Origin: Armatimonadota bacterium
Lineage (GTDB): Bacteria; Armatimonadota; UBA5829
Length of the DNA: 64,000 bases
NCBI GenBank assembly: GCA_026392045.1
Contig: JAPLCU010000009.1
Span: forward strand, 247-64,246
Direction of reading: 5' to 3'
The notes below the pieces were generated by a model. It was given only the letters and a program-made list of their open reading frames with translations, did no database searches and was not told the origin of the DNA. Position 1 is the stretch's first letter, and each line of letters begins with the position of its first letter. Below, piece by piece: positions 5,187 through 27,646 of the stretch. The position numbers and the translations under genes are program-made.

Positions 5187-5298
5187 ACCACTTTGACCAA
5201 TACACAAAATAGCAGAATCGGAGTCCAACCCAACGCCATTCGGCTATGGCGGGCAGGCTGGTTAATGAACGAGCTTGAGCAAAAGGAGATGCCGAGAC

Positions 5299-5476
5299 CC
5301 GACGATCTGACGATCTCTACCACGATCGCCCTGGAAATCTGTTCCAGGGCGCAGGTATTGCGGAAATCCATTCCGCCGGTAAAGCCCTGGCAGGTAAATC
5401 ATCCCGATTTAATCGGGAGAAACGTGCGTCGGGGAACAGATTTCCCCGACGATCTGACGATCACGATCTCTACCGA
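5299..5476. repeat. Direct repeats CGACGATCTGACGATC(ACGATC)TCTACC flanking two short GC hairpins
   Basis: Repeat copies at 5299-5322 and 5447-5476. Hairpins tcccgat-tta-atcggga (5402-5418) and ggggaa-cagat-ttcccc (5431-5447) lie between them. Confidence 0.45.
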
Positions 5477-5502
5477 TAGGTTTCAGTACGTAAGCCCTGC
5501 GA

Positions 5503-7167
5503 TTAGCTCTTCCTGCCCTTGATAAGCTTCTGGAAAGGCGATTCCGGCGACTTTGGATCGTCGTGTGACTGCTGCTGCCATTTTGCGAGCCTGGCTTTCA
5601 TGTCCTCGAGAATGTCTTTGTGCGTGGGGCTGTCTATGAGATTCTTCATCTCGTAATGGTCCTGCGTGAGGTCGTAAAGCTCGTCCATGTCCCCATCGTT
5701 CCAAACGTATTTGTATTGGTCAGTCACCACCATCCGACCCAGCTCATTCTTGAAATGGCCGTGGGTTTCGCACATCAGGTCCTTGCGCCAATCTTTTGTC
5801 TCGCCCGTGCACAATGGAAGTAAGCTGCGACCATCTGTCTCTTTGCTAAACGAAAGACCAGCGGCAGCCAGGAAAGTCGGCGCCAGGTCGATGTTTCCAA
5901 CGAGTTCTTTGCGCTTTTGACCGGGCTTTATTCTGCCTGGGAATCTGACAGCCATGGGAATGCGCATCATTTCTTCGGGCAAGTATGCGTCCTTGTCGAA
6001 GTGGCCGCCATGGCACGCAACGGCATCGCCATGATCGGTGGACCAAACGACCAGCGTATCCTTATCCAGGCCCAGCTTATCGAGCATGTCCACAATGATT
6101 CCGCCTGCATGATCGATCAGGCTGATCTGAGCGTAACACATCGCCAGCGCTTTCTGCCATTGCGACCACGGGAGCGGGTTGGGCTGGATGATATGCCTCT
6201 GACCATCGTGTAAAGGCCAATTCGCTTCCGATTTATATCGGTTTGGCTTTGTCTTAAGGTCATCTTTGAAGTTTGGATATTCGGGAATCGAGGCCGCATC
6301 ATACATATCCAGGAAACGCTTGGATGCAAAGTAAGGCGGGTGCGGCCCCCAAAAATCGATTCGCATCGACCACGGTTGATCGCTCTTTGATTTGGCCAAT
6401 TCTTCCAGTTGCTTACACGCCAGGTCAGCAAGGAACATGGCTTCATGCGTAGCTTCAGGCGAGGTCATCACCCCGGTCACATGCGGATTACACCACTCAC
6501 CGCGCACATGGTAAGGCTCCCCGGGGACGGCCCCTCGCAGCGCATCCGGTTTCTCCGCTCGGATCTTCTTAGCTTCCTCGGGTGAATTCAAAAACGATCG
6601 GCCGATTTTCACTTCAAAATCCGGCAGTCCGTGTTCCTTTAGATAGTCTTTATATTCAGGTTTGTTGTAGGGGCTATTATAGGATGGATTGGAGAACCCC
6701 TCGCAATGGTGATCTTTAGCCGTGCCTGCACCCGCATGCCACTTGCCATAATAAAAGTTGCGGTAGCCGTTTTGGGCCAGGATGTCCAGATAGACCTCCC
6801 GATCATAGGGAGCGTTGACATCATTCTTGATTTCACCATGATTGTGAGGAAAGAGGCCGGTGAGCATAGTTCTCCTGGATGGGCCGCAGAGCGGAGAGGC
6901 GCAATATGCCCTTGAAAACTCTGCACCCTGAGAGGCGAGACGGTCGAAGTTTGGCCTGCGAATTTTAGGGCCGCCGTAGGCGCCGTGGCCATAGAAAGCC
7001 TGGTGGTCATTTAGGATATATAATATGTTCGGTCTGCGCTTCTTCGATGCCTCTGCCATAACTGCCCCCGGAATGCTCAGTAAGGATGCGCCTGCTATCG
7101 TCGCAGCAGCGCCCTTTGCGGTGAGCTTTATAAATTCCCTGCGCGTAAGTTTAGATTTGTCTTCCAT
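5503..7167 (-). CDS. Sulfatase (arylsulfatase family) with Tat signal
   Basis: Sulfatase signature CGPSRRTMLTG (C-x-P-S-R). N-terminal twin-arginine motif TRREFIK followed by a hydrophobic stretch. Start set at MEDKSKLTRREFIKL (ATG at 7167) rather than the longer track ORF. Confidence 0.8.
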   Translation of the reverse strand: MEDKSKLTRREFIKLTAKGAAATIAGASLLSIPGAVMAEASKKRRPNILYILNDHQAFYGHGAYGGPKIRRPNFDRLASQGAEFSRAYCASPLCGPSRRTMLTGLFPHNHGEIKNDVNAPYDREVYLDILAQNGYRNFYYGKWHAGAGTAKDHHCEGFSNPSYNSPYNKPEYKDYLKEHGLPDFEVKIGRSFLNSPEEAKKIRAEKPDALRGAVPGEPYHVRGEWCNPHVTGVMTSPEATHEAMFLADLACKQLEELAKSKSDQPWSMRIDFWGPHPPYFASKRFLDMYDAASIPEYPNFKDDLKTKPNRYKSEANWPLHDGQRHIIQPNPLPWSQWQKALAMCYAQISLIDHAGGIIVDMLDKLGLDKDTLVVWSTDHGDAVACHGGHFDKDAYLPEEMMRIPMAVRFPGRIKPGQKRKELVGNIDLAPTFLAAAGLSFSKETDGRSLLPLCTGETKDWRKDLMCETHGHFKNELGRMVVTDQYKYVWNDGDMDELYDLTQDHYEMKNLIDSPTHKDILEDMKARLAKWQQQSHDDPKSPESPFQKLIKGRKS

Positions 7168-7318
7168 CAAAATGTGCGCCTTCCTACGAATTGAGAATAC
7201 AACAAGTCTCTGCCAAAACCCTCTTTTGGCGAGCGCAAGCGCTGTTATTGGCTTCTGAGCCCTCTGATGTTTGACCGAACCGATCATGGGTATCTTGTTT
7301 TTTAGGTGGTGGAACATA

Positions 7319-7753
7319 ATGGCGAGCTTACCCGTCATGAATATGGGACATACTGGGTATATGGTGGTTCAGACAAACTCAATGGGGCTGTCTACGGCAA
7401 GAAAGCATGTGCACGGCATCGCAAGAGGACTGCGTTTCTCCGATGATGACGCAGCGGATATTCTGCTCGCTGTCGGAGAGGCCATATCGAATGCCTACAG
7501 GCACGGAACTCAAGACCACATTAACGGCTTCATATACATCGACTGGGAATTTGCCCAACGAACCCTTACAGTATCTGTTAAAGACGAAGGCTCCGCATTG
7601 CCATCCGGTATCCAATACTCGCTGGGTTCTTCGTTTACCCCAACTGGCTGTGGATTGGATATCATCCGAAAGAGCGTGGATGATGTCTTTCTTGAATGCG
7701 GCAGCGGCACAAGGATAGCGCTGAGGAAGCGCGCACGTGAATTATTACGTTGA
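7319..7753 (+). CDS. Anti-sigma regulatory factor (RsbW/SpoIIAB-like Ser-protein kinase, HATPase_c)
   Basis: DILLAVGEAISNAYRHG motif typical of RsbW-like anti-sigma factors. About 145 aa. No cognate STAS antagonist adjacent. Confidence 0.55.
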   Translation: MASLPVMNMGHTGYMVVQTNSMGLSTARKHVHGIARGLRFSDDDAADILLAVGEAISNAYRHGTQDHINGFIYIDWEFAQRTLTVSVKDEGSALPSGIQYSLGSSFTPTGCGLDIIRKSVDDVFLECGSGTRIALRKRARELLR

Positions 7754-8050
7754 CAGACAGGCTCGTTCAAGGCTACAATTACTATCCTAATGCCGACGGA
7801 ACGGCTTCACGTGGAATTTGGCAAGAAGCCTATCCGGCGGACGTGCATCGGGGAACGGATTTCCCCGACGATCATAGTTTTGTCCGCGTCCCCGATTTTT
7901 CCACTACACCATATCCTAAGTAAATACTATTTGCTCGGTAAGCGCCCATATCTACGCGTCAAATTGCCTCGAAAGCGGTCGATTTACTGCTTACTGGTAA
8001 TCATTACAGTGTTCAGGGTACGATCTTTGCAACACATGTCGTAAGAGGGC

Positions 8051-9430
8051 ATGATGAAACAAATCAGAGACTTGATGACGTCTGATGTTGTGTGGGTAAA
8101 CCCTTCCACACGTGTTAAAACTGCCGTCATCTTAATGAAAGGGCATAATATCAGCGCGCTGCCGGTCATCCACAACACTGATGGTGTGGTTGGCCTTGTC
8201 ACGCTTCATGCTCTGCTTGGTGAAGCTCAGGACGCGCCCATCTCTAGTTTGATGGATACAAATTTTGCTTCAGTCGACCCTGATACGACCGCCCATAACG
8301 CCGCCGATTTGATGCAGGAAAGCAACACAGGCCATCTGCTTGTAATGGAAAACGGCCGGCTCCTCGGCATCGTCAGTGACAGCGATCTCATCCCCGAACT
8401 CGGCCGCACCTACGACCCGCTCACTGAACTGCCATGGTCAGATACATTCCGCGAATGGGCAATGAATGCGCTCAAAAAAGGGCAGGAAATCAGCGTAATC
8501 CTCTTCGATTTAGACCAATTCGGCAGGTTCAACAAGAAGCACGGGCATGTGATTGGCGATCGGGTGCTTCAAGAGGTTGCGGGTGTGTTCAAGACCAACA
8601 CAGACCCCAACCTGGAACTCACATGCCGATATGGCGGAGATGAGTTTGCAATTGTAAGCGTACGCCTTGCTGATGAGGCCGAAATGCTTGCTGCTCGGCT
8701 GCAGGAAAAAATTGCATTGCTTGCTGTAAAGGGTCTGCCGGAGAAGGTCACAGCAACTTGGGGTATGTTTGGCGGAATGCGCACCAAAGAGCGCGAAGAT
8801 ATGCATTACGCCGCCACGCTGGATGATCTCATCACCCGCGCAAGCAAAAATTGTATTATGAAGAAAAAACCATTCGAGACCGCGAAGGCGCAAGATGCTC
8901 CTGCCGCGCCCCCGAGAGACGAGCCGCAGGCCGCAGCAATTTCGCAGCCCTCTCGCCAAGAGGCCAGAGCAAGTCGCGCTAGCCAAGACGCAGCCGCAAG
9001 CTATGGCGATGAGCGCGCGCCCAGGCTCAAAATAGATACAATCAGCTTCTCATCCACCGGCACCGAGGTAAGCGCCTGCGTCATCTTAAAGCGAGACGGA
9101 AAGCAGTATAAGCGCGAAGTCACCGGGTATACGGTTGGAGGTAATGGCATGCTCCGATTGTTTGCCGAGGCGGCCGCAGGCGCTGTATGCAAGACACTCG
9201 CGCCTGAGCACGGAATAGTGGTTGAAGATACCGGTATAAATGATCTTGGCGATGACGAAGAGCTGGTCACGGTAGTAGCAATATATATTAGCCCAAGGCA
9301 GAACACTCGCCTGGCAGGAACTGCCCTTGTCCGCCGAGGCGATCAATACCGCGCCGCCGTTGCCGCCCTGCTCGATGCAGTAAACAGGCAGATAGAGCTT
9401 GCCCCGCCAGCCTGCGACGAAGAAGAATAG
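8051..9430 (+). CDS. CBS-pair / GGDEF diguanylate cyclase with C-terminal domain of unknown function
   Basis: Two CBS motifs at the N-terminus. GGDEF domain with intact RYGGDEF and inhibitory-site-like residues. C-terminal about 150 aa unassigned. Confidence 0.75.
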   Translation: MMKQIRDLMTSDVVWVNPSTRVKTAVILMKGHNISALPVIHNTDGVVGLVTLHALLGEAQDAPISSLMDTNFASVDPDTTAHNAADLMQESNTGHLLVMENGRLLGIVSDSDLIPELGRTYDPLTELPWSDTFREWAMNALKKGQEISVILFDLDQFGRFNKKHGHVIGDRVLQEVAGVFKTNTDPNLELTCRYGGDEFAIVSVRLADEAEMLAARLQEKIALLAVKGLPEKVTATWGMFGGMRTKEREDMHYAATLDDLITRASKNCIMKKKPFETAKAQDAPAAPPRDEPQAAAISQPSRQEARASRASQDAAASYGDERAPRLKIDTISFSSTGTEVSACVILKRDGKQYKREVTGYTVGGNGMLRLFAEAAAGAVCKTLAPEHGIVVEDTGINDLGDDEELVTVVAIYISPRQNTRLAGTALVRRGDQYRAAVAALLDAVNRQIELAPPACDEEE

Positions 9431-9522
9431 AAATAGGATGGGAGGGCTCAGAATGCTGGAAGAGCGCTAAACGCGCCTACTGCGCGGCACGCTTCGCGTG
9501 AAAGCAGAAGGTCTCAAACTAC

Positions 9523-9609
9523 GTCATTCCGAGGAGAAACGACGAGGAATCTGCTTTTTCGGGACCTTGGTTCAAAGCAGATTCCTCACTGCGTTCGGAA
9601 TGACATGCT
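9523..9609. terminator. Long imperfect inverted repeat between convergent genes (candidate bidirectional terminator)
   Basis: Arms gtcattccgaggag...gaggaatctgcttt and aaagcagattcctcactgcgttcggaatgac. Lies between the GGDEF gene (+) and the CE7 esterase (-). Confidence 0.4.
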
Positions 9610-11033: not shown

Positions 11034-14000
11034 ATGAAGCGCTTATACTATATTTGCCTGGCGGCATTTGCGCTGGTTGTGTGCGCACAGGGCGCATGGA
11101 GCCAGTTGGCATCATCCACTTGGCCGAAATTCCATAGGGACTACGCCGCCACCGGCATGAGCCTGTTTGGCGGGACCGGCTCAGAACTCAGCTGGACTTT
11201 CACCGCTGGTGGAGCAATACAATCGTCGCCTGTGATCGGCGCCGACAACACCGCCTACTTCACCTGCGCAGATGGCAAACTCTACGCGATCAGGGGCGCG
11301 GGCGTGAGCCTGTGGACCAACAATCTAAAGGCTGTCAGCACAATATCGCCAGCCATAGGCGCTGATGGCGTGATATATGTTGGCGCCACAGACAAATATC
11401 TTTGTGCAGTCAAGCCAGACGGCGTCGTAAAATGGAAAAAGCTTCTGGGATCAATACCCAATGCTTCAATTTCCATAGCGCCGGACGGAACCATCTACGC
11501 CGCCTGCCAAAACGGCGCTTTATACGCGTTCGATATTAATGGCACCCAGAAATGGCTGTTCTCTGCAGGAGCCGCAATCAGCTCATCACCCGCGATCGGC
11601 TCAGACGGCGCACTGTATTTTGGCTGCCAGGACTCCAAAATCTATGCCGTCACATCCGCAGGAGCGAAGAAGTGGCCGCCGTTCATCCCATCAGGCGCAG
11701 CAGCATTTTATGCCTCGCCCGCTATAGGGTCCGATGGAACGATCTACATCGGCTCATCAAACGGTTATTTCTACGCCATCAACCCAACCGGTTCAATGAA
11801 ATGGCGAATAAACTCCGGCGGCGATGTTCGCTCCTCGGCTGCAATCTATTCCAATGGATCGATCTACTACGGATGTCGAGATGGGAAAATTCACGCTCTC
11901 TCGAGTCTCAGCCCACAGCTCTGGACATTTGCGACCGGGCAATATGTGGATTCCTCCCCTGCCCTGGGCTCTGACGGAGGCATCTTTGCAGCTTCGTTGA
12001 ACGGCAAACTCTATGCGCTGAACCCGGACGGCACCGAGCGATGGAACTTCGATGCGGGTTCGCCAATCTATTCCTCACCGGCGATGGGTCCCGGAGGGGC
12101 GCTGCTGATCGGCGCTGACAACGGCATTCTATATTGCTTCACCGCAGATTCCACCCCGCCGGGCGCGCCGACCGTCACCGATGACGGCGTCTACACTGGC
12201 CAAAGTGACCGTCTCCACGGCTCGTGGGCTGCGGCTGACCAAGAAAGCGGCATTTATTCTTATGAATACTGCATAGGCGCTGCGCCAGGATTGGCGGACA
12301 TTGCCCCCTGGCTCAACACAGCAGGCGCTGCCCAGCACACCCGCACCGGCCTGAGCCTTACGGATAAGCAGGTTTACTATATCACCGTTCGCGCTATCAA
12401 TGGCGCAGGTCTGACGGGTCCCGAAGCCAGCTCAGATGGAATCACATTGGATGGGACGCCTCCCACTCGCCCGAGCGTCACGGACGACGGCGCGTTTTCT
12501 TCAGACAACACAAAGCTCCATGCAACCTGGGCCTCATCGGATCCTGAATCCGGAATCGGCAGATATGAGTATTCATTAGGCACGACCGCAGGCGGGACAA
12601 ATATTCTCACGTGGACTGACGCAGGAACAAACTCATCCTTCACAAAGACCGGCCTCAGCCTGCAGCAGGGTGCCACCTATTACATCAACGTCCGCGCCTA
12701 CAACAACACCGGCAATGTGAGCCAGATTGGGTCATCCGATGGAATCGTGATCGATACAGCATCACCTCCGGCCCCAGTGGTAACTGATGACGGCAATTAC
12801 ACGGCATCTACGAACACATTGCACGCTATCTGGACAACCGTAACGTGCGCTTCAGGCGTGGCAAGCTATGAGTATTCAATCGGCACATCCGCAGGCGCCC
12901 TCAACATAAGAAACTGGACCGACGTTGGCCTGCAGACAAGCGTAACCGCCACTGACTTGAGCCTGACAAACGGCATAACATACTACATAAATGTTCGCGC
13001 CCGCAACTCGGTAGGCAAAGCGGGATATATAGGATCGGCTGACGGTATTGCCGTAGATTCCACTCCGCCGAGCAAGCCGGTTGTGACTGACGACGGCATT
13101 TACACAAGCTCCACAAGATTGCTGGCAGCGAACTGGTCGTCCAGCGACCCCGAATCCGGCGTTGTCGAATATTTCTATGCAGTAGGCACAACACCCGAAG
13201 GCGCCGATATTCGTGGGTGGACGTCTGCAGGCGCTCAGACAACTTATATAATCACTTCGCTCAACATGCTTGATGGAACCAAATATTACATCAGCGCAAA
13301 GGCCAGAAACGCTGCAGGAGCGGAAAGCGCAGTAGGAACATCCGACGGCATCACCGTAGACTCCACTCCGCCCAGCGCTCCTGTGGTCACGGACGATGGC
13401 AACTATCTGATGGATGCGACCAAGCTTCATGCCACTTGGAGCGCTGCAGATCCTCAATCCGGCATTATCAGATATGAATATTCCGTTGGCACAGCGGCAG
13501 GCATTACGGATGTCCTTGCCTGGACCGATGCCGGAACCGCCACCGATTTCACCATTGCGAACCTGAACCTGGTTTCCGGTCTGCGATACTACGTCAACGT
13601 TCGGGCAACAAACGGCGCGCACACAATAGGCGCGGTTGGATCGTCCGACGGCATATTTGCGGAATCCACCCCGCCAACCACACCGGAAGTCATAGATGAC
13701 GGCGATTTCACCCTTGATACCGCCAGGCTTCACGCCACATGGTCATCTGAAGACCCTGAAACCGGCGTTACGCTTTTCGAGTATTCGATAGGCACATCTC
13801 CTGGTGACGCCAATGTTGTCGGGTGGACTGCTGTCGGCTTATCAACAAGCTTGGACAAGACCGGAATGAACCTCGCTCAGGGTGTCACATATTACATAAA
13901 TGTGAGAGCCACCAACGGCGTGGGCATGGTCAGTGAAATTGGCGCATCAGATGGAATCACAGTGGATACCACCCCGCCGGAGATCGTGAAAGTCACAGAT

Positions 14001-17000
14001 ACCGGCGAGTATACTGCCGACAACACCCAGCTTCACGCAACATTTGAATGCAGCGATCCCGAATCCGGCATCTCAGGCTACGAATGCGCCGTCGGAACAA
14101 TCCCTGGCGGAAGCGATATCTCAAATTGGCAGAATGTGGGACCCGATCCCGAAACCGTAATTATCGATCTTCAACTCCAGGACGGAGTAATATACTACAT
14201 CAGCGCTCGCGCTATAAATGGCGCAGGAGTGCCCGGCCCGATGGGATCGTCGGACGGAATCAAGGTCGATGCCACTCCACCCGTGGATGTAGTAGCTTAT
14301 GATGACGGCGTCTACTGCGGCCTCCCAGACAAACTCCACGGCAGATGGAGCGCAACCGATCCCGAATCCGGCATTGCCAGCTACAAGTATTGCATAGGCA
14401 CAGAACCAGGGTTAAATGACGTCGCAGACTGGCTCGATGTCGGCTCTTCCACCGAGGACACACGCGAAGGGCTGACGCTCACCAACGGCTCGGTCTATTA
14501 CATCACCGTTATCGCTGTCAACGTCGCAGGAAGCGAGAGCCAACCGGTCAGCTCGGATGGAATCAAGTGCGATCTGACACCGGCGACCGTCCCCGTGGTC
14601 ACCGACAACGGCAAATATTGGGGTTATAAGACCAATATGCCCGCGAGTTGGAGCTCTGAAGACCCGGAATCAGGCATAGTCGGCTATCGAACCTCAATAG
14701 GCACAGCGCCCAGCCTTGCGGACGTCGCAGACTGGCTGGAGCTTGGCATGATCACGTCATACACCCGCACCGGCTTAATGCTTAAAGACGGAATTACATA
14801 TTACATAAACGTGCAAGCAGAAAACGGCGCCGGCGTGTGGAGCGAGACCGGCAGTTCGGACGGAATAATGCTGGATTCGACCCCTCCGACCACTCCAATC
14901 GTCACAGATGATGGCGATGGCACGCTGATGCTGGACAGGCTCCATGCCAAATGGCGCTCCGAAGACCCGGAATCAGGCATAGTCGAATATATGTATTGCA
15001 TTGGCACAAGCCCCGGCGCAATCGATGTGAAGCCATGGACCAGCGCGGGGACGAGTGAAGACATCACAGTCACCGGCCTGAAATTGGAACCAATGCTGAC
15101 CTATTACTTCTCCGTCAAATCGAAAAACGACGCGGGAGCCTGGAGTGCGGTAAGCGCCAGCGACGGCATCCAGTTTAGCACAGGAGCAGCCATTTGGTGG
15201 AAATTCCACAATAATACCACCAATGTCGGGCGACAAATATTCAAAGGCACCCGCGTGAACGACCTTGCGTGGTCCGTCGAAACTCAAGGCTTCGTGGAGT
15301 CATCCGCAGCCATAGCCTCCGACGGCACCGCCTACATTGGCTCGGGCGACGGCAAGGTCTATGCAGTCACGCAGAACGGCACCCTGAGATGGACTTTCAA
15401 CACAGGCGGCCCTATCGACAGCTCCCCTGCGGTGGCTGTGGATGGCCGAATTGTGATAGGCTCCAACAACGGCAAAGTCTATTGCCTGAACCCAGCAGGC
15501 GAAGTGGTCTGGACCTATACCGCAGGCGGGGCCGTGCGCTCATCAGCGCTAATCAGCAACGGCCGCGTCTACATAGCCTGCAATGACAAGTCGCTCTATG
15601 CCCTCAACCTCGAGACAGGCGCGAAACTCTGGTCATACAAAACCGGAGATGCTATCTGGTCATCGCCCGCATGCGACACTAACGGCGTAATCTACTTCTG
15701 CAGCGGTGATTCTTATATATACGCAATCAATCCGGACGGCACGCGCAAATGGCGCTATCTGACGGGTTCCGCAGCGGATTCATCACCAGCTATTGGTGAA
15801 GACGGCACCATTTACGCAGGCAGCGGCGACGGCTACTTCTACGCCATCAACCCAATTGGTACCCTGAAATGGCGCTACTTTGCAGGAATCATAGCGGACT
15901 CATCGGCCGCCATCGGATTGGACGGCAACATTTACTTCGGCGCAGGTATTGATGGCGGCGATGGCGCGTTTTACGCTCTATCTCCAAGCGGCAGCAAAAT
16001 CTGGAGCATAAATTTTCCAGGTGGAGGTATCATATCCTCACCGGCAATCGATTCCACCGGCATGATATACGTTGGGTCGGCGGACGAGCATATCCGAGCG
16101 ATCAATCCCGACGGCACAATCTGCTGGACATTCAAAACAGGCTCCTCGGTTGCAAGTTCACCGGCGTTGGGCGCGGACAGCAGCGTGGTTTTCGGTTCTT
16201 ATGACGGCAAAATCTACTGCTTGCGCGATATGAAAGCAAGAGACCTTACGCCGCCCACCACTCCCGTAGTTATCGTTCCAGCGACGCTTGCATCAGGCCA
16301 GCCGCTGACAGCTTTATGGAGCGCCACGGACCCCGACTCAATGGTCGCCGAATACGTATATGCAATCGGCTCCGCGCCGGGTCAGACAGACGTTTCATAT
16401 TGGACCATCGCAGGCATCGAGACCGGTGTCACTCGTCTTGATCTGGCTCTAATTGTGGGTCAAACATACTATGTATCGGTCAAGGCCCGCAATTCATCTC
16501 AAAGATGGAGCGAGATCGGCGTTTCGCAGGGTGTCGTAATCGGGGGCACAGCCATAACCGTCAACATTGCACAGGCAAAGAAGCTCGCGGACAATACTAT
16601 AGTATCGATGAACGGCAAAGTCGTGGGCGCGGTATTCAATGACTGCTTCTTCGTGCAGGAACCCAACAGAATCGCCGGTATAAGATGTGTATTTGCCGGA
16701 GCGAATCTGATTTCGGGCGACACAGTAAACCTGATCGGCGATGTCAGCACGCTTAATGACGCGAAAACTCTATCGAGCGTGACGTTCACCCAGACAGCAA
16801 CAGGCCCCGCCCCCGCGCCTCTGGGCCTGTGCGGAAAGCTGCGCAAAGACCAAATGCCCGACCCATTCGGGCTGAACGTGAAAATCTGGGGCCGGGTGAC
16901 ATCAGTGGGCCCTGGCTATTGCATAATCAACGGCCACACCGGCGCCCAACCCGCTGGAGCGCCCACGGGTATAGAGCTCCGATCCGCCGAAATAACAGCA

Positions 17001-17117
17001 GCAAGCGGAGACTTCGTAACCGCGAGCGGCATACTGTGCGCTGAGAAAGTCGGCGAACAGATAACAACAGTGCTGCGGGTGAAGACGCCGGGGGCAGTGG
17101 TAGTGGCGCCAAAATAG
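11034..17117 (+). CDS. Giant secreted protein (2027 aa): two PQQ/BamB-like beta-propellers, about 14 tandem FN3-like modules, C-terminal domain
   Basis: RBS GGAGGGATAGGAA before the ATG. Signal peptide. PQQ-like repeats (GSDGxIYxGSxDGxxYAxNPxGxxKW) at aa 60-370 and 1400-1720. Repeats of about 101 aa (TPPxxPxVTDDGxYT...LHAxWxxxDPESGIxxYEYxIGTxPG...YYxNVRAxN). Confidence 0.8.
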   Translation: MKRLYYICLAAFALVVCAQGAWSQLASSTWPKFHRDYAATGMSLFGGTGSELSWTFTAGGAIQSSPVIGADNTAYFTCADGKLYAIRGAGVSLWTNNLKAVSTISPAIGADGVIYVGATDKYLCAVKPDGVVKWKKLLGSIPNASISIAPDGTIYAACQNGALYAFDINGTQKWLFSAGAAISSSPAIGSDGALYFGCQDSKIYAVTSAGAKKWPPFIPSGAAAFYASPAIGSDGTIYIGSSNGYFYAINPTGSMKWRINSGGDVRSSAAIYSNGSIYYGCRDGKIHALSSLSPQLWTFATGQYVDSSPALGSDGGIFAASLNGKLYALNPDGTERWNFDAGSPIYSSPAMGPGGALLIGADNGILYCFTADSTPPGAPTVTDDGVYTGQSDRLHGSWAAADQESGIYSYEYCIGAAPGLADIAPWLNTAGAAQHTRTGLSLTDKQVYYITVRAINGAGLTGPEASSDGITLDGTPPTRPSVTDDGAFSSDNTKLHATWASSDPESGIGRYEYSLGTTAGGTNILTWTDAGTNSSFTKTGLSLQQGATYYINVRAYNNTGNVSQIGSSDGIVIDTASPPAPVVTDDGNYTASTNTLHAIWTTVTCASGVASYEYSIGTSAGALNIRNWTDVGLQTSVTATDLSLTNGITYYINVRARNSVGKAGYIGSADGIAVDSTPPSKPVVTDDGIYTSSTRLLAANWSSSDPESGVVEYFYAVGTTPEGADIRGWTSAGAQTTYIITSLNMLDGTKYYISAKARNAAGAESAVGTSDGITVDSTPPSAPVVTDDGNYLMDATKLHATWSAADPQSGIIRYEYSVGTAAGITDVLAWTDAGTATDFTIANLNLVSGLRYYVNVRATNGAHTIGAVGSSDGIFAESTPPTTPEVIDDGDFTLDTARLHATWSSEDPETGVTLFEYSIGTSPGDANVVGWTAVGLSTSLDKTGMNLAQGVTYYINVRATNGVGMVSEIGASDGITVDTTPPEIVKVTDTGEYTADNTQLHATFECSDPESGISGYECAVGTIPGGSDISNWQNVGPDPETVIIDLQLQDGVIYYISARAINGAGVPGPMGSSDGIKVDATPPVDVVAYDDGVYCGLPDKLHGRWSATDPESGIASYKYCIGTEPGLNDVADWLDVGSSTEDTREGLTLTNGSVYYITVIAVNVAGSESQPVSSDGIKCDLTPATVPVVTDNGKYWGYKTNMPASWSSEDPESGIVGYRTSIGTAPSLADVADWLELGMITSYTRTGLMLKDGITYYINVQAENGAGVWSETGSSDGIMLDSTPPTTPIVTDDGDGTLMLDRLHAKWRSEDPESGIVEYMYCIGTSPGAIDVKPWTSAGTSEDITVTGLKLEPMLTYYFSVKSKNDAGAWSAVSASDGIQFSTGAAIWWKFHNNTTNVGRQIFKGTRVNDLAWSVETQGFVESSAAIASDGTAYIGSGDGKVYAVTQNGTLRWTFNTGGPIDSSPAVAVDGRIVIGSNNGKVYCLNPAGEVVWTYTAGGAVRSSALISNGRVYIACNDKSLYALNLETGAKLWSYKTGDAIWSSPACDTNGVIYFCSGDSYIYAINPDGTRKWRYLTGSAADSSPAIGEDGTIYAGSGDGYFYAINPIGTLKWRYFAGIIADSSAAIGLDGNIYFGAGIDGGDGAFYALSPSGSKIWSINFPGGGIISSPAIDSTGMIYVGSADEHIRAINPDGTICWTFKTGSSVASSPALGADSSVVFGSYDGKIYCLRDMKARDLTPPTTPVVIVPATLASGQPLTALWSATDPDSMVAEYVYAIGSAPGQTDVSYWTIAGIETGVTRLDLALIVGQTYYVSVKARNSSQRWSEIGVSQGVVIGGTAITVNIAQAKKLADNTIVSMNGKVVGAVFNDCFFVQEPNRIAGIRCVFAGANLISGDTVNLIGDVSTLNDAKTLSSVTFTQTATGPAPAPLGLCGKLRKDQMPDPFGLNVKIWGRVTSVGPGYCIINGHTGAQPAGAPTGIELRSAEITAASGDFVTASGILCAEKVGEQITTVLRVKTPGAVVVAPK
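12147..15190 (+). repeat. In-frame tandem array of about 14 repeats of about 303 bp (FN3-like modules) inside the giant gene
   Basis: Periodic recurrence of DPESGI / YEY / YYINVRA peptide blocks every 100-101 aa. Many long antisense ORFs in this interval are repeat artefacts. Confidence 0.7.
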
Positions 17118-17150
17118 ACCCAGTCTTTTACTTGGGGGAGAAGAAAAGTT

Positions 17151-17179
17151 CGGGGCGCATGATCTGCCATGCGCCCCGC
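17151..17179. terminator. 11-bp perfect stem-loop between convergent genes (candidate bidirectional terminator)
   Basis: cggggcgcatg-atctgc-catgcgccccg, 34 nt after the giant-gene stop and 64 nt before the stop of the 549-aa gene. No canonical U-tract. Confidence 0.4.
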
Positions 17180-17242
17180 GAGTTATAATGCAGATGCCAC
17201 ACAAAAAGTTCAAGCAGTTGAGACCCATAAGTCCTTGATTTA

Positions 17243-18892
17243 TTAAGACACCGGTTGTTCCGCGAACCAGTGGAGCACATTGCGTACCGGTCTCAATTCA
17301 TAATGGGCAATAATACTTCGAACTTTGGTACATACGCGAAGAACATGTCCAATGTTTGGATCATACTCTATTGCGCGCACCATCAATGGTCCTTGCTCAA
17401 TATCGGTGGCATCTAAAATCAAATCCAACACTCTTTTTCCATCCATTTCAGCCGTTGCCCGCCATACATATTTAGGCATACACTCGAGAAGTACCGCTTT
17501 TTTGTAATCACCTGACAAAACTGGCGATTCCAAAATTTCTCTTTTTAGTTTGTTAACTTCTGTGAGGTAGATATCCCATTCGATGACATCGAATAATTTC
17601 AGGGACTGCGCGACTATGGGAAGCTTCATGAACTCATCAAACCCAATCACTACATTCATTGCAGTACGATAAGGAATTCTAATCTTATGATATAGGGGAA
17701 TAAGTAGGTACTCTGGTTTTGCGTAAGTATCGCCGATTTTTCCGCATTGATTACGCCAAGAAGTCTTCAATCGCGGATAATCTGTCTGAAGTGGGTATCC
17801 GGTTGACTGATCAATCATAACGCTACCCGTGTCAGGATCAATCAGATTTACCATAATGGTGTCTATCTCCATCCTTGCAAAAGGACCGACACCATCATCA
17901 TGCGCGTAGAGTTTGTCGATCCGACTGGCCCTAAGAAGAAAATCAGATTGGCCATACGAATCAGGCGATGTCTTCCCCAAACTGTAGCCTGTTACCGCAA
18001 CCGCGTGAAGCCCACGCTTCGTCTGAGCAGAGTGATCATAAAGCATGACTATGAGGGGCACTGGAATTCCCCCCTTGAGATATCCATAGATTGTACTCTG
18101 TAGGCAATACTCGTTGCTTATCGTATCGTTAATCTTCACATGCAGCGGCTGAAGGCCGACACTGCTTATGGCATGTGCCATTTGCTCTTTTCTTAACCCA
18201 AAGTTAGGCAGTTCACGCTCATCCAATGGAAACCTGGCATGTGCTGCCTTGGTGATTTCTACTGGCGAAGGTATAGCATGCTGAAATTGTCTGCCGGTGC
18301 CTTGAAACGTCGACCACAGTGCACTTGTCGCACAAGCTGCCGCAACACTATCTTGTTCTTGAAATGCCAAAGTATCTGCAATTTCTAGCTTAACACCAAA
18401 AATATTGGCTTTATATGGACGAGTAATTGGGAAGTGCCTGCGGTCGTTATCTGGCAAATAGGTCTTAAGACAAGTTCGGCCTATTATCGTTTCCGGTAAG
18501 GGCTTAACAACTATGAAACCTAAATAGGCATTACGTAGCTTTTCGACAAAGCGTTTACCCCGACAACCTCGCAACAATTTCGTGAAATTGTCTCTTGTGA
18601 AGAACTCATCAAAGAAGTGCAGTCGCGTGCAAATAGAATTGTAGTCAAAGAAGCAACGCACATAATAGCTAGAGTAGTCTTCGAGAAAGTCACGATCAAT
18701 ATAATTATGCTCGACAAGGATTGTCTTCGCATTAACCCCAGAAGATCCAAAATATTCATAAAAGTAGTCGGAATGTGGTTTATCATGAACAACATCAACC
18801 GAAGCCATAGAGCAATCAGAAAGAATCTGTATTAGTTTGCTGGAGCTATAGGCATAAACTTCAAAGGCTTGCTTTCTGGTTGAATCAGTCAT
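17243..18892 (-). CDS. Hypothetical 549-aa protein on a low-GC island; possible papain/C39-like Cys...His motif
   Basis: Strong single ORF at about 40% GC against about 55% in flanks. No recognisable domains. Candidate catalytic Cys in QDSVAAACATSALWSTFQG and His in RGLHAVAVTGYSLG, resembling the C39/papain-like CxxxxL...HxVVxxG arrangement (speculative). Start overlaps the stop of the upstream 65-aa ORF (ATGA). Confidence 0.6.
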   Translation of the reverse strand: MTDSTRKQAFEVYAYSSSKLIQILSDCSMASVDVVHDKPHSDYFYEYFGSSGVNAKTILVEHNYIDRDFLEDYSSYYVRCFFDYNSICTRLHFFDEFFTRDNFTKLLRGCRGKRFVEKLRNAYLGFIVVKPLPETIIGRTCLKTYLPDNDRRHFPITRPYKANIFGVKLEIADTLAFQEQDSVAAACATSALWSTFQGTGRQFQHAIPSPVEITKAAHARFPLDERELPNFGLRKEQMAHAISSVGLQPLHVKINDTISNEYCLQSTIYGYLKGGIPVPLIVMLYDHSAQTKRGLHAVAVTGYSLGKTSPDSYGQSDFLLRASRIDKLYAHDDGVGPFARMEIDTIMVNLIDPDTGSVMIDQSTGYPLQTDYPRLKTSWRNQCGKIGDTYAKPEYLLIPLYHKIRIPYRTAMNVVIGFDEFMKLPIVAQSLKLFDVIEWDIYLTEVNKLKREILESPVLSGDYKKAVLLECMPKYVWRATAEMDGKRVLDLILDATDIEQGPLMVRAIEYDPNIGHVLRVCTKVRSIIAHYELRPVRNVLHWFAEQPVS

Positions 18893-18894
18893 GA

Positions 18895-19092
18895 TTATGT
18901 CCAGAGGGCAATCTGATATACAGGTTGTGCATCAATGCTCTGAGCTTCGCGCATACGGTCTTCAGCAGTCTTTGCGCGTTTAGCTATTTCGGAGACTGCC
19001 GTTTGCCCATCAGAACTTTCCATCCAAGTTCGTACCTTCTCAGCACGCTGCTTAACTGCTGGATCAACTCCACGTAACAAAACCTTCTCCAT
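18895..19092 (-). CDS. Small 65-aa protein, ribbon-helix-helix-like (antitoxin/regulator-like)
   Basis: MEKVLLRGVDPAVKQRAEKVRTWMES has the beta-strand plus two-helix pattern of RHH proteins. Preceded by a purine-rich SD (gatggggggatgggata) and a consensus promoter. Translationally coupled to the 549-aa gene. Confidence 0.5.
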   Translation of the reverse strand: MEKVLLRGVDPAVKQRAEKVRTWMESSDGQTAVSEIAKRAKTAEDRMREAQSIDAQPVYQIALWT

Positions 19093-19118
19093 TATCCCAT
19101 CCCCCCATCACTAGCTCT

Positions 19119-19147
19119 AGTATAACACCCACATATTACCGTGTCAA
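19119..19147 (-). promoter_or_regulatory. Sigma70-type promoter TTGACA-N17-TATACT driving the 65-aa/549-aa cassette
   Basis: On the minus strand: TTGACA cggtaatatgtgggtgt TATACT, about 27 nt upstream of the start codon at 19092. Confidence 0.5.
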
Positions 19148-19232
19148 ACTTACCCTCAAGCTTATTATGGTAAAACGGTTATTCCTCATTTAGTGGCAAA
19201 GAACCAATCTCTATTGATTTTGTCCTATAAAA

Positions 19233-19832
19233 CTAAACCTTAGAAACCCACCGCCTATATCTCTCCAGATAAAACCGCCAAGGCTCATCAATGGCTTCTT
19301 TTATGCCTATGCGCGGTCGGATGATTATCTCACCTATATCCAACCCATCATCAATGACATACAGCCGCCCGTCAGCCAGGCATTCGCCATTAAGCTCCTT
19401 AGCGATGCCCATGGCCTGGGTGAGCTTGCCGGGACCGCTGCAAAGGTCTTCAAGGCGTTCTTTATTGCGGTTTTGCATCATGACATCGATGCCATCGATA
19501 GGCTCTAGCGCTCTGATCAAAATCGCCTCGCCAATACCCTTTGGCTGCGTAACAAAATTGAGGCAGTAATGAAAACCATAGGTGAAATAAACATAGGCGC
19601 GCCCTGGCTCGCCAAACATTATCTCATTTCGTTTGGTCATTCCTCGGCTGGCATGGCACGCGGGGTCATCGTGAAGATAAGCCTCCGTCTCAATGATCCT
19701 GCCAGAAGTGACAACCCCATCATTCACATGCACAACTATCTTACCCAGCGCCGCCCGCGCAACCTCCACGGTATTTTGAACATAAAAATCGCTATCCAGC
19801 TTATTCACTGCTTGCCTCTGATCATTCAACAC
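19233..19832 (-). CDS. DNA-3-methyladenine glycosylase (Mpg/AAG family)
   Basis: Conserved blocks GRIIETEAYLHDDPACHASRGMTKRNEIMFGEPGRAYVYFTYGFHYCLNFV and GPGKLTQAMGI typical of methylpurine DNA glycosylase. Confidence 0.8.
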   Translation of the reverse strand: MLNDQRQAVNKLDSDFYVQNTVEVARAALGKIVVHVNDGVVTSGRIIETEAYLHDDPACHASRGMTKRNEIMFGEPGRAYVYFTYGFHYCLNFVTQPKGIGEAILIRALEPIDGIDVMMQNRNKERLEDLCSGPGKLTQAMGIAKELNGECLADGRLYVIDDGLDIGEIIIRPRIGIKEAIDEPWRFYLERYRRWVSKV

Positions 19833-26070: not shown

Positions 26071-26119
26071 ATAGGCGATTAAGAGCAAAATGAAATGCAT
26101 TACTAAATCAGGAGAAACA

Positions 26120-27067
26120 ATGGAAGCAATCATCAACATTCTGCCAGAGACGGACTGCATATTGGAAGGTGATTGCCGTACCTTGTTGCGGCGGTTTCCG
26201 ACTGAGCATTTTTCAGCCTGCATAACAGACCCACCTTATAATTATGAGTTTATAGGGCGTACCTGGAATGAAGATGAGATAACGCGAAGGTTGGAGCGCA
26301 TTCAGAACTCCAAAACACTTGTAAAGAATATTCCATATGGAAGCGGGCTAGCAGGGGGGGTAAGAAACGAGCGATGGTACGCGCGTAATCGAGAGAACAT
26401 AGAACAGTATCAAAAATGGTGCAAGGAGTGGGCAGATGAGTTGTTTCGTACACTTCGCCCGGGAGCGTATGTAATGGTCTTTAATAGCACCCGAACGATT
26501 GCGCATGTTCAGGTCGCACTGGAGGACGCAGGATTTTATGCACGCGACATACTTGTGTGGCGACGTCATTCCGGTATTCCCAAAGGACTAAACTTTTCGG
26601 ATAAAATGGGTAAGTTGGGTGACGAGAAGGCAGCTTCGCGTTGGACAGGATGGCATAGCTGTCTGCGCAATGAATGGGAAGCTATATGCTTGCTCCAGAA
26701 ACCGCTTCTTAATAACTACATTGAGACAATAAAGAAATCGGACGTTGGGCTGCTACATGCTGAGGATGGATTTGGCTTTGCGTCTAACATAATTGACGGG
26801 ATTGGCAGATCGTTAGATGATAAGACAAGTGAGCATTGCACAGTGAAGCCGCTTGATTTGATGCGCTATCTAATACGACTGGTCGTTCCGCAGTCACACG
26901 ATCATATAGTGCTCGATCCTTTCGCCGGGACAGGAACGACATGTGTGGCGGCACATGAATATGGCGTCGGTTATGTGGGAATCGATATAAACCAGCGTTA
27001 TTGTGAAATTGCACGTGAACGTTTGATGGTAATTGGTCAAGTGCCCACCCAGAAAGCACTATTCTGA
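26120..27067 (+). CDS. Type II DNA methyltransferase, beta-class (N4-cytosine or N6-adenine)
   Basis: DPPY (motif IV) near the N-terminus and FAGTGTT (motif I) near the C-terminus, which is beta-group order. RBS AGGAGA 5 nt upstream of the ATG. GC lower than flanks. Confidence 0.8.
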   Translation: MEAIINILPETDCILEGDCRTLLRRFPTEHFSACITDPPYNYEFIGRTWNEDEITRRLERIQNSKTLVKNIPYGSGLAGGVRNERWYARNRENIEQYQKWCKEWADELFRTLRPGAYVMVFNSTRTIAHVQVALEDAGFYARDILVWRRHSGIPKGLNFSDKMGKLGDEKAASRWTGWHSCLRNEWEAICLLQKPLLNNYIETIKKSDVGLLHAEDGFGFASNIIDGIGRSLDDKTSEHCTVKPLDLMRYLIRLVVPQSHDHIVLDPFAGTGTTCVAAHEYGVGYVGIDINQRYCEIARERLMVIGQVPTQKALF

Positions 27068-27646
27068 ACCCCGCGTAATGCAGTGTGATGTCGCGCACAT
27101 CCGCAACCAGCTCTGTAAGTCAATTCCTGTTTTGGTGCATATATAATCGAACGTCTGCTGTGCTGTGTATACTGTCCATCCACCGGTAATACAGGCAGTA
27201 AGTGCCGCTGGCAAGTTATCATCGCGCACTATGAGCAACACTGGACGAAATCCCTCCGCAGTCAGAGCTTTACCGTATTGCTTGAACTTCTTGAGGGTTC
27301 CAGAGTCACCCGATCCGATTCGATATTTAGTGTCAATTGCATCTAGCCCGCACATTAAATCGCACAATTCATCATTGTTATCGCGGTATCCGTGCGCAAA
27401 ATCTTGGCAATTCACGCGAAAGAGCGCAGTAATGATCAATTGCCAGCACATTCCCAACTCCCTGCCCCAATACTGCCGGTTCTCTCGCTTCAGCTCTGGT
27501 GATATGCTGAAGACATCCATCAAGACGTCTATGTCATTGTTTTCGTCGCCATAAGTCTTGCTCGAAAACGAATCAGAATACTGGCTAAGTATCTCAGTCA
27601 GTGCTTGCTGCCATTCATTCATTGCTGCTCTCCATAATCTCATCAA
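27059..27646 (-). CDS. Putative Type II restriction endonuclease (small, PD-(D/E)xK-like)
   Basis: Position is the classic C-R arrangement: it overlaps the end of the C gene and is convergent with M. Candidate D...ELK catalytic motif (IDVLMDVFSISPELK). No direct family recognition. Confidence 0.4.
   Translation of the reverse strand: MMRLWRAAMNEWQQALTEILSQYSDSFSSKTYGDENNDIDVLMDVFSISPELKRENRQYWGRELGMCWQLIITALFRVNCQDFAHGYRDNNDELCDLMCGLDAIDTKYRIGSGDSGTLKKFKQYGKALTAEGFRPVLLIVRDDNLPAALTACITGGWTVYTAQQTFDYICTKTGIDLQSWLRMCATSHCITRGSE

Follow-up and report, generated by a model that had tools for sequence, protein, structure and literature searches.

A predicted papain-like cysteine peptidase and its small partner look like an undescribed toxin- or defence-type module recurring across bacterial phyla, on plasmids and in one phage

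Several described bacterial systems each share part of their design with the two-gene locus analysed here. C39-like peptidases of clan CA (PF13529; ComA, PCAT1) have a Cys at the N-terminus of a helix, followed by a strand with the His and a further strand with an acidic residue, an arrangement also predicted for the large protein of our locus. They also have a Gln shortly ahead of the Cys, for which the large protein offers candidates in Q178 and Q180. This protein, however, is neither fused to an ABC transporter nor provided with a double-glycine substrate, and its catalytic domain is embedded between two large conserved domains. The hallmarks of C39 bacteriocin processing (an ABC exporter and a double-glycine leader) are absent among its conserved or frequent neighbours and from its partner.

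In staphopains (C47), too, a cysteine protease is encoded beside a small dedicated protein, the staphostatin. Staphostatins are beta-barrels of about 105 amino acids and are encoded downstream, whereas the partner described here is predicted to be a helical hairpin of about 60 amino acids with a C-terminal tail and is usually encoded upstream. Staphostatin occupies the active-site cleft of staphopain in the direction of a substrate (title of PDB 1pxv); inhibition by our partner is a proposal. Staphopains are moreover secreted zymogens with a pro-region, whereas the large protein has no signal-like N-terminus evident by eye. Papain-fold toxins with immunity proteins are exemplified by the CdiA-CT of Citrobacter rodentium (PDB 8ssm) and by a C39-like type VI effector (PDB 9jdd). 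These are C-terminal domains of secreted polymorphic toxins that are delivered between cells; the large protein, in contrast, lacks a trafficking domain and seems to work within the cell that makes it.

CapH/CapP, ImmR/ImmA and DdrO/IrrE likewise combine a protease and a small partner near immune or stress operons, but CapP, ImmA and IrrE are M78 metallopeptidases with HTH-repressor partners, whereas here the peptidase is of the cysteine type and its partner lacks an HTH. Published work treats Bub operons as putative immune pathways (PMC11601596; PMC13373217); 31% of them are accompanied by CapH and CapP, and they encode peptidases of their own, BubE and JAB (PMC11601596). Finally, type II toxin-antitoxin systems resemble our locus in their adjacent, co-transcribed genes (here with one promoter and one terminator around the pair) and in their patchy, mobile distribution. 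They differ in that our partner has no recognised DNA-binding domain (RHH, HTH, AbrB or Phd) and that its promoter has no operator-like repeat.

The locus lies in a 64,000-nucleotide stretch of bacterial DNA, all of which is referred to as the window. It consists of two co-directional minus-strand open reading frames of the window's ORF list, encoding 65 amino acids (18895-19092) and 549 amino acids (17243-18892), with the following features:

19119..19147 (-), promoter of the sigma-70 type, TTGACA-N17-TATACT, agreeing with the consensus at 11 of 12 positions and carrying an extended -10 TG
19093..19118 (-), short 5' leader in which a G-rich run, GGGGGGATGGGATA, resembles a Shine-Dalgarno sequence and precedes the ATG, read from the sequence
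18895..19092 (-), small partner gene, 65 aa, predicted helical hairpin with consensus W and S-x-x-G, and C-terminal tail, from the ORF and its homologues
18893..18894 (-), two-base spacer TC between the small-gene TAA and the large-gene ATG, from the sequence
18368..18892 (-), large gene, N-terminal alpha/beta domain, aa 1-175, from invariant columns, secondary structure and pLDDT
17693..18367 (-), large gene, predicted clan-CA (papain-like, C39-like) cysteine peptidase domain, aa ~176-400
within that domain (-), Q180; C187, codon 18332-18334; H296, codon 18005-18007; H331-D332-D333, 17894-17902 (Asp codons 17897-17899 and 17894-17896, checked in the sequence)
17246..17692 (-), large gene, C-terminal alpha/beta domain, aa 401-549
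17151..17178 (-), intrinsic-terminator-like hairpin, 12-bp stem with 9 G-C pairs and a T-rich tail

The pair is flanked by genes for a 2027-aa beta-propeller/repeat protein and a methylpurine-DNA glycosylase, and no integrase or transposase adjoins it in the window; the earlier note had described it as wedged between a giant surface protein and a DNA glycosylase with no mobile genes adjacent, and rightly so. The same note gave the interval 40% GC in a region of 55%. The dip is real, but these figures were wrong: 17243-19147 has 43.9% GC, against 51-56% around it (window mean 51.4%, giant gene 55.7%, downstream genes 50-52%), and is, among 1.9-kb stretches, the GC minimum of the 64-kb window (0.6th percentile), with a GC3 of 0.41 compared with 0.55-0.61. 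The horizontal acquisition deduced from this dip is corroborated by the absence of synteny with the loci of the closest homologues and by the AT content of the family gene, which exceeds that of its flanks at 66 of 72 loci. No direct or inverted flanking repeats or insertion scars were found around the cassette.

The near-consensus sigma-70 promoter that had been claimed for the pair is present, and is the sole site scoring above 9/12 within 16900-19500. The G-rich run behind it would serve as the ribosome-binding part of the leader, as judged from its sequence. Translational coupling through an ATGA overlap had also been suggested; the actual junction is TAA (18897-18895), TC and ATG (18892-18890), tightly spaced and with the two genes in different frames, and at homologous loci the spacers measure 7-14 nt. 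The public annotation of the small ORF (P0274) is 42 amino acids long and starts from an internal Met. We prefer the 65-aa start because the shorter one removes W23, a consensus helix-1 residue of the partner family.

The papain/C39-like Cys/His arrangement first read in the large protein proved well founded. The motifs QDSVAAACATSAL (C187) and GLHAVAVTGY (H296) stand 109 residues apart and are followed by HDD at 331-333. An AF2 model of the protein (pLDDT 86.4, pTM 0.87) has a papain-like alpha+beta fold with the predicted nucleophile Cys and base His placed as in clan CA: C187 begins helix 186-203, H296 lies within strand 291-305 and H331-D332-D333 end strand 325-332. In a Foldseek search against the PDB the significant matches, and all of the best 25, are papain-like, and the closest include the double-glycine leader peptidase domains of ComA and PCAT1. 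Across 48 homologues of 45-63% identity, C187, H296, H331, D332, D333 and Q178-E-Q-D181 never vary; C187 is likewise invariant in a set of 57 sequences, and the predicted triad is C187/H296 with either D332 or D333. Q180 stands 7 residues ahead of C187, where the clan expectation is about 6, and the intervening loop 182-184 is modelled with a pLDDT below 50.

Sequence profiles only graze this domain. PF13529 (Peptidase_C39_2, gathering cut-off 24 bits) scores 14.7 bits (E 0.045) on the window protein, over the His region only, and gives sub-threshold matches in 8 of the 48 relatives; a relative on a Pseudomonas aeruginosa plasmid, 33% identical, is the only one to reach the cut-off, scoring 24.7 bits across profile positions 4-141. 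The N-terminal domain is highly conserved (H40, E61, Y64, D66, D72, C88, R90, H92, C141 and the motif YYVRCF...CTRLHFF) and has no match in Pfam, NCBIfam or PDB sequences, while the C-terminal domain has the conserved motifs PLYHKIRIP, EWDIYL, MPRFxWRATA and FDATDIEQG. Searches with the 549-aa protein and with its family profile returned nothing meaningful among PDB sequences and nothing in NCBIfam, PADLOC, PHROGs or GenBank phages. The earlier statement that the large protein matches no recognised family stands: it belongs to a big coherent family that has no entry in Pfam, NCBIfam, PADLOC or PHROGs. This family comprises 4,661 clusters at 50% identity, ranges from Armatimonadota to Pseudomonas, Shewanella, cyanobacteria and Bacteroidota, and is present in 266 of 185,579 species genomes (about 0.14%), scattered over many phyla.

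The pairing of a small with a large gene, first noticed in the window alone, holds across genomes as an obligate pairing. A partner homologue adjoins the protease gene in about 82 of 87 loci, 69 of them found by HMM and 13 by eye, the latter having divergent upstream partners that share the same tail. Among the HMM-found partners, 65 (of the 87 loci) lie directly upstream on the same strand, three directly downstream, and one is fused to the C-terminus of the protease (P0275); a relative 65% identical to this fusion has its partner gene directly downstream. What the fusion and the swapped gene orders speak for is no more than a physical or functional connection between partner and protease. 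Searching a set of 5.8 billion proteins with the partner profile gave 8 matches, all apparently partners of family members as judged from the matching sequences, a low count because the word index is insensitive to short divergent proteins; among those 8 there were no other partnerships and no further fusions.

What is conserved in the partners is their extreme C-terminus, whereas the N-terminus is variable. They end in a free tail, VDPxxLxEP-phi-T-phi, and 63 of 74 fit [TSNADC][LIVMFC]-stop. The window partner ends ...DAQPVYQIALWT (IALWT), which is atypical in running two residues beyond the phi-x-phi end. In the model of the natural fusion P0275 the partner domain forms two helices and no strand (pLDDT 67-89), and the tail (residues 571-581) has a pLDDT below 50 with undefined placement, so that this model lends no support to docking of the tail in the active site. 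Rows for the small proteins were left out of the modelling alignment; MAFFT had scattered them across the large protein. Mutual information between the last 12 partner residues and the protease columns (64 pairs) gave noise only.

The small protein had been read as ribbon-helix-helix-like, and a classical type II toxin-antitoxin system, in which an RHH antitoxin binds DNA and represses its own promoter, would agree with a small gene that is upstream, tightly spaced and served by its own promoter. The window copy, and it alone, has a superficially RHH-like succession of KVLLRG, helix, G-x-T turn and helix. We nevertheless consider this explanation very unlikely. Neither RHH nor CopG, Arc or MetJ families of Pfam match the small protein even at E<=1, and no DNA-binding feature was found in the partner. 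An S-x-x-G turn and two helices are present, yet the segment before helix 1, where the RHH strand should lie, differs in length and sequence and is nearly absent from some members (L005 begins 15 residues before the conserved W), and the partner domain of the fusion model is strandless. The gene order is reversed in one subclade and the genes are fused once, and no operator-like inverted repeat was found at the cassette promoter.

The likeness to ComA and PCAT1, together with a small protein of precursor-peptide size, also brings to mind a C39-type leader peptidase that matures its neighbour as a bacteriocin- or RiPP-like precursor. This we regard as most improbable, since the partner contains no Gly-Gly motif and its conserved C-terminus and variable N-terminus are the reverse of a leader-core precursor. 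Furthermore, no ABC transporter is fused or adjacent, no conserved modification enzymes or immunity genes lie nearby, and neither protein has an N-terminal hydrophobic signal-like segment evident by eye.

The surroundings of the family point to mobility and conflict. Neighbours at homologous loci include integrases, type I and IIG restriction-modification systems, SNF2/Hma, MADS, Fic and SymE. Distant relatives reside on conjugative and other plasmids, beside a Tn3 transposase, IS21, a caspase-family protein or a Bub operon, and on one viral contig the pair sits between the large terminase and portal genes, in the phage head module. The architecture had been called typical of toxin-antitoxin, abortive-infection or anti-phage modules; this context supports the conflict flavour of that description, but no known toxin-antitoxin or defence family was matched. 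PADLOC-DB v2 defence models gave zero matches for both proteins at E<=1, neither protein matched NCBIfam, PHROGs or toxin-antitoxin families, and in the literature on papain/C39 toxins, defence systems and Bub-associated genes we found no description of the protease family.

Most genes flanking the homologues are ordinary housekeeping genes, as might be expected if the large protein were a papain-fold enzyme of housekeeping or metabolism (for instance an amidase, or a transpeptidase of the phytochelatin synthase sort), assisted by a small chaperone or adaptor and outside genetic conflict. The distribution makes this decidedly improbable: the sparse occurrence over many phyla, the GC content systematically below that of the flanks, and the copies on plasmids and a phage contig all speak against it, as do the lack of synteny among homologous loci and the failure to find conserved metabolic neighbours.

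Bub operons (Multi_ubiq / Prok-E2_E / JAB-ThiF) with CapH- or CapP-type regulators adjoin the pair in about 10 of 98 loci, roughly 10%, whereas most loci have no such neighbours. In six of them (L023, L026, L046, L048, L094 and L095) the order is XRE-HTH, small gene, large gene, with a Multi_ubiq/E2/JAB-ThiF operon oriented divergently from them; none of these loci showed an M78 (CapP-like) peptidase, and the pair therefore holds CapP's usual position. In L010, L060, L061, L067 and the P. aeruginosa plasmid, an M78 peptidase and HTH pair adjoins as well. The large protein could accordingly be a signal-activated regulatory protease with a cleavable partner, following the logic of ImmA/ImmR, IrrE/DdrO and CapP/CapH, or an accessory module of Bub operons: its N- or C-terminal domain would sense stress, upon which the partner or a neighbouring XRE repressor would be cut and adjacent genes induced, or else it would deconjugate Bub Ubl adducts. 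The company of CapH and CapP at 31% of Bub operons, cited above, lends weight to such a role, which we nonetheless hold to be unlikely. Some 85-90% of loci, the window included, have no adjacent HTH or Bub genes, and in the window no Ubl, E2-like, E1-like or DUF6527/BubE gene occurs near the pair. The HTH gene is separated from the pair by gaps of 170-460 nt, so that the pair probably keeps its own promoter, and it does not simply replace CapP because L010 has a CapP-like peptidase in addition to the pair. The phi-T-phi terminus of the partner also differs from the Gly that Ubl proteins expose, and Bub operons already possess BubE and JAB.

The explanation that we favour, and to which we give an even chance, is that the two genes form a conflict module of toxin-antitoxin or anti-phage type, self-contained and horizontally mobile, in which the partner would control the protease. 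The effector would be the cytoplasmic three-domain protein of 549 amino acids, its central clan-CA cysteine peptidase active through C187, H296 and D332 or D333, and the second component an obligate partner of about 60 amino acids, a two-helix hairpin with the extended free tail VDPxxLxEP-phi-T-phi-COOH. The partner would bind the protease and restrain its activity; in the simplest case its tail would lie in the substrate cleft and imitate a substrate or a product. Once stress or infection caused the partner to be lost, displaced or cleaved, the protease would be free to cut cellular or invader proteins. We infer the toxic or defensive nature of the protease, the inhibitory role of the partner, the seating of its tail in the active site, and the trigger and targets.

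Several observations weigh against a conflict module. At 549 amino acids the protein is large for the toxin of a classical toxin-antitoxin system, and the window pair stands alone among housekeeping genes, outside any defence island. The missing matches in PADLOC, NCBIfam, PHROGs and toxin-antitoxin families, the mostly housekeeping neighbours of the homologues, the partner without a DNA-binding domain, the atypical window tail and the noise in the tail-protease mutual information count on the same side.

A bolder version of the conflict module seems possible but doubtful: the pair may be the first representative of a protease-based system of immunity or addiction that is widespread but undescribed, in which the EP-phi-T-phi-COOH tail of the partner would plug or bait the active site and hold the protease latent, the two outer domains would detect infection or damaged DNA, and some lineages would be wired to Bub pathways via CapH-type regulators.

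As a defence or addiction module, the pair would add a papain-fold protease effector under a new mode of control. Its repeated position beside Bub operons and CapH/CapP regulators offers a specific clue to pathways whose role is not yet settled (PMC13373217), and if the Bub-linked reading is true the module could supply their missing effector or regulatory arm. Even if it proves ordinary, there is a new clan-CA peptidase family to annotate, with two new domains. The pair is amenable to simple experiments, since its catalytic core is clear and its small partner is strictly linked, with a free C-terminus that is conserved and unusual.

Two minor observations concern the borders of the unit. No conserved third gene was found near the pair; an apparent third-gene cluster of 33 loci was rejected, being an antisense ORF inside the protease gene. 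The terminator-like hairpin closing the unit, which did not figure in the earlier note, lies 65 nt past the stop of the large gene and 34 nt past that of the convergent giant gene.

By predicted fold and catalytic residues, the large protein of the pair is a clan-CA, C39-like peptidase. The only Pfam match is a faint one to Peptidase_C39_2 that covers the His region (E 0.045; 14.7 bits, where the cut-off is 24), and searches of NCBIfam, PADLOC, PHROGs and PDB sequences returned nothing. Modelled confidently with AlphaFold from 48 homologues (pLDDT 86.4, pTM 0.87), the protein consists of alpha/beta domains at the N-terminus (about aa 1-175) and the C-terminus (about aa 401-549) and a central domain between them (about aa 176-400). 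Structural matches are Staphopain C (score 12.9), the ComA C39 peptidase domain (12.7; 131/135 residues, 2.5 A), PCAT1 (12.1), PeiR (12.0), a papain-like CdiA-CT toxin (8ssm; 10.5) and UfSP/ZUFSP (8-9.8), and Foldseek agrees with them. C187 opens the central helix, H296 is part of a strand, and the strand after it ends in H331-D332-D333; across 48 sequences of 45-63% identity there is no variation at these residues or at Q178-E-Q-D181, and in the model the putative catalytic residues fit a papain-like fold. A Pseudomonas aeruginosa plasmid relative (33% identical) exceeds the Peptidase_C39_2 cut-off over the whole profile, which ties the family to C39-like peptidases by sequence too. The earlier note had guessed at a Cys/His peptidase and proposed AlphaFold and Foldseek as a check for a papain/C39 fold; the structural matches, the invariant residues and the plasmid relative bear the guess out. 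The N- and C-terminal domains, though highly conserved (H40, E61, Y64, D66, D72, C88-x-R90-x-H92, PLYHKIRIP, WRATA, FDATDIEQG), match nothing. The large protein is an active-looking peptidase of clan CA under strong purifying selection. Its C39-like fold might suggest peptide maturation, but all the defining features of bacteriocin-processing C39 systems are absent from the pair and the window protein falls under the Pfam cut-off; such a role is highly improbable.

The family is very large and uniform, with at least 1,800 full-length matches of 500-560 aa, every one named 'hypothetical', and its 50%-identity cluster representatives number 4,661 at E<=1e-3 and 2,109 at E<=1e-30. It occurs in 266 of 185,579 species genomes, across Pseudomonadota, Desulfobacterota-type lineages, Planctomycetota, Bacteroidota, Cyanobacteria, Nitrospirota, Zixibacteria, Armatimonadota and others, with Pseudomonas mandelii, Methylotenera versatilis, Mangrovimonas xylaniphaga and Stenomitos frigidus among the isolates. 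The pair is absent from PADLOC, and a literature search found no paper describing the family, which is large, wholly unannotated and easy to test.

The small partner is obligate to the protease. A jackhmmer search of six-frame ORFs from 87 related loci placed it immediately upstream on the same strand in 65, immediately downstream in three and fused to the protease C-terminus in one (locus L044, protein P0275). Among the 18 loci lacking an HMM match, a divergent ORF that ends in the same way lies upstream in 13, and two further loci are at contig edges, so that the co-occurrence check suggested earlier links the genes in 69 of 87 loci by HMM, plus these 13. Since a relative 65% identical to P0275 carries the partner gene directly downstream, the fusion arose inside a large-then-small subclade. 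Both the permuted gene order and the fusion suggest that the two components are directly linked, physically or functionally. Two tandem partner genes (5210-5404 and 5800-5994) precede one protease gene in locus L027, and one Aminicenantes MAG (CSMAG_1899) holds two copies of the pair on separate contigs (L029 and L040).

The partner consensus consists of a helix (…W), an S-x-x-G turn, a long helix and VDPxxLxEP-phi-T-phi, directly followed by the stop codon. Such an ending at the stop is found in 63 of 74 partners, and in P0275 the tail remains a free C-terminus; a few partners, including the window copy (…YQIAL-WT), have 1-3 residues beyond or replacing the canonical end. The small protein had been taken for ribbon-helix-helix (RHH)-like, a view that did not hold: no RHH family matches it, the variable N-terminus leaves no room for a beta strand in short members, and the partner domain of the fusion model is two helices, all of which points to a helical hairpin with a tail. 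The pair shares its layout with type II toxin-antitoxin systems but has no DNA-binding antitoxin and no match to a known family; a classical RHH toxin-antitoxin pair is very unlikely.

In the window, the pair is organized as follows:
19147..19119, minus strand: sigma-70-type promoter TTGACA-N17-TATACT with TG extended -10, 11/12 consensus positions
18895..19092, minus strand: small partner ORF, 65 aa
17243..18892, minus strand: large protease ORF, 549 aa
17178..17151, minus strand: 12-bp G+C-rich hairpin and T run, 3' of the large gene

The near-consensus promoter reported from the sequence was confirmed as the only one in the region above a 9/12 match, and a G-rich Shine-Dalgarno-like run separates it from the first ATG. 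With its own promoter and 3' hairpin, the pair forms a complete transcription unit. The proposed ATGA overlap is instead a 2-nt spacer (TAA-TC-ATG) with a change of frame. The public MAG annotation (NT018_00960, protein P0274) starts the small ORF at an internal Met (42 aa, 18895-19020); the 65-aa reading is better because the shorter one drops W23, a consensus helix-1 residue of the partner family. The hairpin lies between the convergent giant gene (stop 17117) and protease gene (stop 17243), and since its T run is confined to the minus strand the cassette may be its main user. The low GC noted earlier stands, in that the cassette (43.9%) is the lowest 1.9-kb stretch of the window (0.6th percentile), but the contrast is smaller than claimed (window mean 51.4%, giant gene 55.7%, downstream genes about 50-52%); GC3 is 0.41 against 0.55-0.61.

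The distribution of the pair is patchy and mobile. Even the closest homologues (61% identity) lie in unrelated neighbourhoods and hence show no synteny, no third conserved gene was found beside the pair in homologous loci, and in 66 of 72 loci the protease gene has a higher AT content than the DNA flanking it (mean 6.2 points). Immediate neighbours in the 87 loci are heterogeneous. Conflict or mobility genes form a visible minority: type I and IIG restriction enzymes, SNF2/Hma-like helicases, MADS components, an AbiEii-like ATPase, IS200 and DDE transposases and XRE regulators, with integrases, Fic, SymE, Mrr and type I restriction-modification genes at individual loci. Plasmid-borne distant relatives (29-33% identity) in Shewanella baltica, P. 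aeruginosa and Hymenobacter each have an upstream 52-57-aa gene and adjoin Tn3 transposase, IS21, caspase-family protein and DEAD-box helicase genes. A non-conflict enzyme, with which the many ordinary neighbours would be compatible, is distinctly unlikely. Two of the distant relatives, L090 4860-7019 (S. baltica pS19501) and L091 4917-7097 (P. aeruginosa plasmid p4782_002), are proteins of 719-726 aa whose extra C-terminal domain of ~180 aa (common motifs GHP-x-x-TG…AARI-GE…SGRYS, without Pfam match) may be an appended effector domain. On an IMG/VR viral contig (L086 1189-12005) the pair is inserted in a phage head-packaging module, with the large terminase gene on one side and the portal gene on the other, an insertion site resembling that of a cargo ('moron') gene.

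Of 98 loci, about 10 (L010, L023, L026, L046, L048, L060, L067, L094 at 3318-8322, L095 at 5171-9593, and L091) have the pair next to a Multi_ubiq/Prok-E2_E/JAB-ThiF operon with an XRE-type HTH gene. Multi_ubiq, Prok-E2_E, JAB-ThiF or DUF6527 genes are seen there, with an M78 (ImmA/IrrE-type, CapP-like) peptidase in some. These are ubiquitination-like Bub (6E/DUF6527) operons with CapH/CapP-type regulators, which have been described as putative immune pathways (PMC11601596, PMC13373217). Judged informally, the adjacency is far more frequent than chance for operons so rare, and gives the pair an immune or stress-response context. The pair might be a Bub accessory, or a regulatory protease of the CapP/ImmA kind whose partner is cleavable; six of these loci read HTH, small, large with no M78 peptidase seen, while the adjacency is optional, the window and most loci having none of these genes, and this reading is unlikely.

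We give about an even chance that the pair is a mobile two-gene module for conflict, with a cysteine protease under the control of the partner; the protease represents a new clan-CA family. The partner is distinctive and the link to Bub/CapH loci suggestive. The partner would bind the protease and restrain it; the simplest route would be for its extended tail to occupy the cleft as a mimic of a substrate or product. Once released, the protease would damage the cell or an invader. Staphopain/staphostatin and papain-fold toxins with immunity proteins are precedents for this logic. The tail-plug mechanism itself is held with much lower confidence than the conflict-module reading, as the tail has pLDDT below 50 in the natural-fusion model and tail-protease covariation is noise.

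Around the pair, the window genes are ordinary (sulfatase, GGDEF, acetyl-xylan esterase, a 2027-aa beta-propeller/repeat protein, methylpurine-DNA glycosylase, BON-domain protein, PAS histidine kinase and Dus). As observed before, no mobility gene adjoins the cassette, and a search for flanking repeats found none. The 2027-aa protein (11034-17117) has PQQ/BamB-like beta-propeller repeats at both ends and, in the middle, about a dozen tandem modules of ~95 aa, each opening with a '…DxTPP…VTDDG' motif. An N6/N4 DNA methylase gene (26090-27067), convergent with a 195-aa ORF that lacks a Pfam match (27059-27646), lies some 7 kb from the cassette; the two could form a small restriction-modification pair.
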